Positions 37,255 to 37,548 of a DNA stretch of 64,000 nt are shown piece by piece (position 1 is the first letter of the stretch; each line of letters opens with the position of its first letter). Source of the DNA: Escherichia coli 042 (GTDB lineage Bacteria; Pseudomonadota; Gammaproteobacteria; Enterobacterales; Enterobacteriaceae); assembly GCF_000027125.1 (NCBI RefSeq), contig NC_017626.1; one strand, written 5' to 3'. The notes beneath the pieces were generated by a model. That model had not been told where the DNA came from and made no database searches. It saw only the letters and a list, made by a program, of their open reading frames with translations. A program made the position numbers and the translations under genes.

Positions 37255-37548
37255 TCAAGTATAAAAGCCAATACCTACTATTAAGATTATTACACTCAAA
37301 ATACAACCCGTTGTCTTGAGTAATAAAGTTCGCAGGTCTTTCAGCCTTTGTGGATGAGAGTGGACATGAACTTTGGGATCAATACTATAATTCCTCTCGG
37401 CAAGTTTTCGTTTATACTCTTCATGTTCAAGTTCGAAGGCCATTGAATTTTCGGCAGCGATAGTTACAAATCTCTCTGCGCTGAATATTAAATACCACAT
37501 GGTCTTATAAAGATTCTGCTTTTGAGGGAGCGGTCTTTCTGTATTCAT
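37255..37548 (-). CDS. Hypothetical small membrane protein, 3' end truncated by IS911
   Basis: 97-aa ORF whose last codons and stop fall within the IS911 terminal repeat; hydrophobic C-terminus; no family recognised. Confidence 0.25.
   Translation of the reverse strand: MNTERPLPQKQNLYKTMWYLIFSAERFVTIAAENSMAFELEHEEYKRKLAERNYSIDPKVHVHSHPQRLKDLRTLLLKTTGCILSVIILIVGIGFYT

Follow-up and report, generated by a model that had tools for sequence, protein, structure and literature searches.

The open reading frame (ORF) at 37255..37548 on the minus strand of the window (the whole stretch of E. coli DNA that was analysed, 64,000 nucleotides) is, at a probability of about 0.9, the 5' 58% (codons 1-97 of 168) of a membrane-protein gene that was cut by the insertion sequence IS911 and whose 3' 213 nt were lost in a rearrangement. 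The feature is an ordinary IS-generated pseudogene fragment. Judged from its sequence, the 97-residue ORF is most likely a non-functional remnant, lacking the second and third transmembrane helices (TM2 and TM3) and the conserved motif of the intact protein.

The stop codon of the ORF is supplied by IS911

The ORF, its junction with IS911 and the two ends of the element are located as follows.

37255..37548, minus strand: truncated ORF, 97 aa, ATG start, from the ORF listing
37258..37548, minus strand: gene remnant, codons 1-97 of 168; a 5' remnant with the N-terminal domain and TM1 (~75-97) kept
37255..37257, minus strand: TGA stop, bases 1-3 of the IS911 left inverted repeat (IRL)
36923..37257, minus strand: left part of IS911, with the 36-bp IRL at 37222-37257 and most of orfA; cut at 36922/36923 by IS30
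33412..33438, plus strand: outer end of the right inverted repeat (IRR) of this IS911, opposite the IRL; borders on ...CATTCGCTACT, an hsdR remnant

A spacer of 88 bp separates the ORF from res, which precedes it on the same strand. The ORF contains one strong hydrophobic segment, at residues ~75-97 (Kyte-Doolittle 2.39), in line with an earlier note in which a 97-aa small membrane-protein ORF had been recognized downstream of res. The junction on the minus strand reads ...ATT GGC TTT TAT ACT / TGA AGT GGC ACA CTG AAT TTG GCC ACC..., such that the 3' end of the ORF (...GGCTTTTATACT) meets the start of IS911 (TGAAGTGGCACACTGAATTTGGCCACC). The latter 27-nt IRL string occurs once in the window, spanning 37231-37257 on the minus strand, where 0 copies were expected, and the stop of the ORF is therefore literally the first three bases of IS911. 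Since the ends of IS911 start with TGA in the frame of the ORF, translation halts at once after ...TTTTATACT. The same note had proposed that the stop was supplied by the IS911 end, and this can now be put exactly: the TGA at 37257..37255 is bases 1-3 of the IRL.

The identity of the element itself was established from several features. The terminal repeat starts 5'-TGAAGTGG and is followed, past the IRL, by an orfA-type frame. The IRR string at 33412-33438 (plus strand) is also unique in the window, with 0 copies expected. An orfA-like frame was found at 36835..37221 and orfB fragments at 35040..35633 and 33420..33689, the element being split by IS30 and ISEc45. The IRL and IRR sequences used are those we take to belong to IS911, and they are backed by identity to the RefSeq-annotated IS911 in E. 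coli E24377A. Identical DNA in strains 55989 and E24377A is annotated in RefSeq as an IS3/IS911-family transposase. The layout in the window fits the published organization of IS911, with its 36-bp inverted repeats and an OrfA of ~100 aa (PMC2909936).

The interrupted gene is intact in related loci

A search of 5.8 billion proteins returned 18 relatives of the 97-aa ORF. Complete relatives have 168 aa and were found in Salmonella enterica (82% identity), Cronobacter, Pectobacterium and others; residues 1-97 of the window ORF align with these proteins, which run 71 residues further. Across the N-terminal domain and TM1 (97 aa) the ORF is 67-82% identical to full-length members (E = 1e-33 to 1e-43), and its start codon is conserved among the homologues. 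Pairwise dN/dS values were 0.09-0.40 for the shared N-terminal part and 0.19-0.42 for the C-terminal part that the window has lost, so that purifying selection acts on both halves of the intact gene. The 18 homologues and the dN/dS values rule out a chance ORF.

The intact 168-aa gene follows res in Salmonella, in three Cronobacter loci, and in Pectobacterium, E. coli PigCaeca_2 and Pantoea, always after the same type III res gene and with a gap of about 85-100 bp. The proposal of the earlier note that IS911 had struck a gene originally following res was thereby supported: comparison with IS-free orthologous loci recovered the full-length 168-aa gene in the position after res, and its relatives occupy that position in several genera. 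The DNA of the window is collinear with that of Salmonella through the 3' end of res, the spacer and the gene up to ...GGCTTTTATACT; at this breakpoint the window has IS911 and Salmonella has GGAACATTAAGC.... The most direct comparison is provided by E. coli CFSAN004176, where the same allele, differing by one mismatch in 291 nt, is free of IS911. This copy reads past the IS boundary as ...TTTTATACT / GGAACATTAAACATGGCT... (also read as ...TATACT / GGAACATT...) and on to residue ~146, beyond which a different rearrangement has fused it to a wzzB fragment. Homology of the window ORF to both CFSAN004176 and Salmonella ends exactly at ...TTTTATACT. Because the CFSAN004176 allele continues past the junction, it follows that IS911 cut a gene located after res.

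A family of predicted three-TM membrane proteins

A profile search of 1.84 billion cluster representatives gave a family of 82 clusters at 50% identity (E < 1e-3), most of them 160-176 aa long and aligning end to end. In an alignment of 55 sequences the only near-invariant residues besides M1 were W122, G137, E142 and G156, which form the motif W[AS]TLF[EQ]LG...W.G..L.E. All four lie beyond residue 97 and are absent from the window copy, which lacks residues 98-168 and aligns to columns 1-97 only. An AF2 model built with 55 diverse sequences (pLDDT 90.5, pTM 0.80) showed four helical blocks, an N-terminal helical domain at 13-50 and long helices at 65-97, 108-128 and 140-165; a model built with 11 close sequences was unusable (pLDDT 48.7). 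The intact protein is predicted from this model to be a small inner-membrane protein with a cytoplasmic helical N-terminal domain and three TM helices. The window copy could at best yield a 97-residue protein with a tail-like single TM segment. The 168-aa family had no match among Pfam, PADLOC (PADLOC-DB 2.0) and NCBIfam profiles, curated models of anti-phage defence proteins and holin/Abi membrane effectors included, a fold search gave no significant match, and no relatives were found in IMG/VR viral contigs.

Distribution and decay of the gene in E. coli

The ORF region was found in 65 of 5,426 complete E. coli genomes, and the exact IRL junction of the window, over 721 bp, in 60 of them. 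Identity among the 65 genomes is 99.7% or more over this region, and conservation of the ORF among them therefore reflects recency and not selection. The annotations of 55989 and E24377A include the identical 97-aa protein, WP_001091149.1, which RefSeq appears to have mis-annotated as a complete "hypothetical protein". In E24377A the IRR, not the IRL, abuts the same nucleotide between the same two flanks; because both ends of IS911 start with TGA, this strain encodes the same 97-aa product. The remaining four of the 65 genomes are probably of the CFSAN004176 type, as judged from overlapping genome lists.

IS911 in the window and in 55989 (33412-37257) and IS911 in E24377A (locus L003, 8387-11906) lie in opposite orientations, with flanks that are identical to the nucleotide. 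Recombination between whole IS911 copies was considered as the cause of this flip and was rejected, as each flank would keep its own inverted repeat.

A third junction, ...TTTTATAC / TGAAGTGGTTTACTG..., was seen in draft assemblies, where a diverged IS911-like element begins one base earlier; its product has 101 aa and ends in EVVY. Other copies of the gene are cut by IS481, the Kosakonia copy has an internal stop, and short or frameshifted forms occur elsewhere. Since it has been broken by IS481, by the wzzB fusion, by an internal stop and by frameshifts, the gene is frequently degraded.

A 44-bp piece of the gene (37282-37325, codons ~74-88) is present at 100% identity in 194 other complete E. 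coli genomes, including 042. In those genomes (locus L002, 4001-4044) it stands alone in unannotated DNA, against an IS5-family inverted repeat, apparently as what is left of an earlier gene copy. Derivation of the C-terminus of the ORF from an IS5-family end was also considered; in 042 the inverted repeat begins right after the 44 bp, so that the piece is not IS sequence, and this origin was discarded.

Loss of the 3' part of the gene

Insertion of IS911 normally leaves both flanks in place with a duplication of 3-4 bp (PMC2909936). If this were a simple insertion, the gene would be interrupted with its 3' part lying across the IS, and excision would restore it. For the window this reading is refuted. 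No direct target duplication of 3-4 bp was found at the ends of the element, where the flanks read ...TATACT and AGTAGCG...; the flanking triplets, ACT and AGT, are inverted and not direct, and the sequence beyond them is unrelated. The sequence beside the IRR (...CATTCGCTACT) is, by the annotation of E24377A, the tail of a type I restriction endonuclease gene, and not the continuation of the small gene. A tblastn search of the window and of the loci of 55989 and E24377A did not find the missing 213 nt or the C-terminal part that they encode. At the DNA level, the 3' part matched 81 of the 5,426 complete E. coli genomes, and no IS911-truncated allele was present among the 60 of these 81 matches that were listed. 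Because the 3' part is missing and there is no direct repeat, the present structure is that of an insertion followed by a deletion or rearrangement. The IS911 end would have landed exactly after ...TTTTATACT, its in-frame TGA stopping translation, and the 3' 213 nt would then have been lost in an IS-associated rearrangement that joined IS911 to the hsdR remnant. The locus resembles other IS-generated truncated genes in that the IS911 repeat abuts coding sequence and provides an immediate in-frame stop; it differs from them in lacking a target duplication and in missing the distal part of the gene.

A different reading would take the 97-aa ORF as a complete functional small protein, for instance a tail-anchored peptide kept for its usefulness, its truncation tolerated or even selected. 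It is favoured by the annotation of the protein in 55989 and E24377A and by an unbroken ORF in all 65 complete genomes; the N-terminal domain and TM1 have been kept, and the spacer, its hairpin and the start codon are untouched. Against this, the 65 genomes are near-identical at the DNA level, all of the near-invariant residues of the family have been lost, and the breakage of the same gene by other means elsewhere makes a pattern of decay. A functional 97-aa protein is thus unlikely, and truncation of a longer gene by IS911 is the preferred reading.

Between the IRR and pic (33065-33411) lie the last ~70 nt of a type I hsdR and then a fragment starting TGAACCGCCCCGGGTTTCCTGGAG, which resembles an IS629/IS1203-type end. 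The same remnant of hsdR precedes mcrC-mcrB in E24377A.

The cassette that precedes the gene

The genes upstream of the truncated ORF, all on the same strand, are the following.

37570..37610, minus strand: conserved stem-loop in the 88 bp that separate the stop of res from the start of the small gene
37637..40507, minus strand: Res, type III restriction subunit, 956 aa (PF04851 ResIII; PADLOC REase_III, E = 0)
40510..42137, minus strand: type III Mod methyltransferase (PF01555, PADLOC MTase_III), in two frames via a 1-nt deletion at ~41417
42147..44534, minus strand: IetS-like S8 peptidase, 795 aa (PADLOC E = 0)
44544..45524, minus strand: IetA-like AAA ATPase, 326 aa (PADLOC E = 4e-105)
45550..48398, minus strand: DrmD-like SNF2 helicase (949 aa in 55989), frameshifted by A5->A4 at ~48176

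The minus-strand order in the window is tRNA-Phe (52842-52917), integrase, SNF2, IetA, IetS, Mod, Res, the hairpin and the truncated gene, followed by IS911 (with IS30 and ISEc45), the hsdR remnant, the IS629-like end and pic. The same six-gene order with an intact 168-aa gene was found in Salmonella, Cronobacter, Pectobacterium, Pantoea and E. coli PigCaeca_2 (NZ_CP038857.1, 4138904-4150330) and CP55_Sichuan, and in several of those genomes the end of the cassette adjoins an integrase and a tRNA gene. In the IetA/IetS literature nothing was found on an SNF2-IetA-IetS-Mod-Res cassette.

A 106-nt stretch of the spacer region has a predicted folding energy of -29.6 kcal/mol (z = -3.98). Five genera retain its helix, E. 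coli, Salmonella, Cronobacter and Pectobacterium being among the carriers, with compensatory changes in six of the 15 pairs. No U-tract follows the stem-loop, for which a terminator, a processing site and a stabilizer are all candidate roles.

Relative to 55989, the window carries two 1-nt deletions, GG->G in mod (~41417) and AAAAA->AAAA in the SNF2 gene (~48176), both of which cause frameshifts. An unbroken mod gene (542 aa) is present in 55989, and none of the 60 listed complete E. coli genomes with the allele has the mod deletion; mod is intact in all of them. The two frameshifts must be mutations private to the window strain or else errors made in sequencing short homopolymers.

A tRNA-Phe gene is the insertion site of the island in the window (52842-64000 side). 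The sizes of the ORFs beyond it, 548, 438, 158, 493, 433 and 592 aa, suggest groEL, yjeH, fxsA, aspA, dcuA and dsbD, which would correspond to the pheU site. In 55989 a near-identical island occupies the tRNA-Phe gene beside yqgA (pheV); the chromosomal sequences flanking the two islands do not align.

The gene is an occasional companion of Res

A survey was made of 80 species-representative loci with relatives of Res, from 93% down to 31% identity. A DrmD-like SNF2 protein and Mod accompany Res in nearly all loci with enough upstream sequence. IetA and IetS were found in only two of the 80 loci, those of Pantoea and Kosakonia, in which Res is at least 92% identical. The same two loci were the only ones of the 80 with a member of the small-protein family, even in an HMM search at E = 10, and the search (to E = 10) found none in ~50 other loci in which 900 nt or more follow res. 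The slot after res is taken elsewhere by a ~1107-aa protein in Firmicutes, by ~300-aa proteins in some Gammaproteobacteria, and by other genes. Because it is absent from most related loci, the small gene is not a core part of the Mod-Res(-SNF2) system. As to the suggestion of the earlier note that the lost gene was possibly a component of the restriction or defence locus, the count of 2 in 80 loci speaks against it, and a 47%-identical paralogue located after type I hsdR speaks for it.

The survey also showed that nearly all related loci, in taxa from Proteobacteria to Firmicutes, Spirochaetes and Bacteroidota, combine SNF2 with Mod-Res, with a variable insert in the gap between SNF2 and mod (IetA-IetS in Enterobacterales). 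SNF2, Mod and Res look like a conserved system distinct from both classical type III restriction-modification (R-M) and DISARM; the SNF2 protein scores below the NCBIfam DrmD cut-offs.

Paralogues linked to type I systems and more distant members

The 47%-identical paralogue lies 20-60 bp after a type I hsdR in ~69 complete E. coli genomes and several metagenomic contigs. In Ecol_244 (NZ_CP019020.1, 3709924-3717927) the order is a TIR protein gene, hsdM, hsdS, DUF4268, hsdR and the 165-aa gene, then, after further genes, int and tRNA-Leu. More distant members (at most 31% identity) follow genes for SduA_C nuclease-domain, HEPN_AbiU2, DUF433 and RelE-like proteins, and others follow an aminotransferase, an epimerase or unannotated ORFs. 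The 168-aa family is enriched in defence neighbourhoods, with its closer members tied to the slot after a translocating restriction subunit, and has no fixed partner.

The integrases of two islands with the small gene are 78% identical and the small proteins only 47%. The possibility that the small gene belongs to an integrase backbone found no support, in view of this mismatch and of the position of the cassette far from the integrase in the window and in Salmonella. In two of the type I-linked loci (L015, 7797-8597; L110, 7513-8313) a 266-aa protein is encoded after the small gene. The L015 copy is annotated as DUF6615 (PF20320) and precedes the integrase, and this protein may be a second recurrent passenger.

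Possible role of the intact gene

Comparison with known systems helps to place the gene. The cassette has Mod and Res, like type III R-M of the EcoP15I type, with the small gene 88 bp after res. Canonical type III R-M needs only Mod and Res; the small gene is missing from most Mod-Res loci, and Mod-Res is coupled to SNF2 in the survey. A resemblance to IetAS lies in the IetA and IetS homologues of the cassette and in the finding that, within the survey, the small gene accompanies a type III res only in IetAS cassettes. These homologues, however, score below the NCBIfam equivalog cut-offs, and type I systems devoid of IetAS also carry paralogues of the small gene; the co-occurrence is explained equally well by one recently spread cassette. 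PrrC, a soluble anticodon nuclease in the type Ic EcoprrI locus, offers an analogy of position only, as an extra gene within or directly after an ATP-dependent restriction operon. The small protein differs from it in having no sequence or fold similarity to PrrC and in being a predicted three-TM membrane protein.

The intact 168-aa gene could be unrelated cargo of the islands, a hitch-hiker at their edge or near the integrase, its position accidental and without a link to restriction or defence, and this reading falls somewhat short of even odds. It agrees with the absence of the gene from every one of the other ~50 Res-related loci with downstream sequence, where the slot is variable, with its place as the last gene before the integrase in several islands, and with distant members beside housekeeping-type genes. 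It is opposed by the window, 55989 and Salmonella, where the gene has moved together with the cassette and no integrase is near, by the paralogue 20-60 bp after hsdR in independent islands, by relatives that follow SduA_C and HEPN_AbiU2 nuclease genes, and by the difference in identity between integrases (78%) and small proteins (47%). Because the gene recurs directly 3' of the genes for ATP-dependent restriction subunits, in type III as well as in type I systems, its intact product might tentatively be regarded as an optional accessory, located in the membrane, of such restriction cassettes. It would then serve as a tether or as a back-up effector, outside the core of the system; this is a guess from gene position, and unrelated cargo is at least as likely. 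It is more doubtful still that the intact 160-176-aa family as a whole would constitute an undescribed membrane-bound accessory encoded 3' of Res and HsdR, either localizing restriction at the membrane or acting as a latent membrane-damaging back-up once restriction is blocked.

The defence cassette on the pic island of 55989/O104:H4-type strains has thus lost its last gene. That gene belongs to a conserved, unannotated three-TM family found directly after the restriction-subunit genes of two R-M types in tRNA-linked islands. If a role as a restriction accessory were true, systems regarded as purely cytoplasmic would gain a membrane component.
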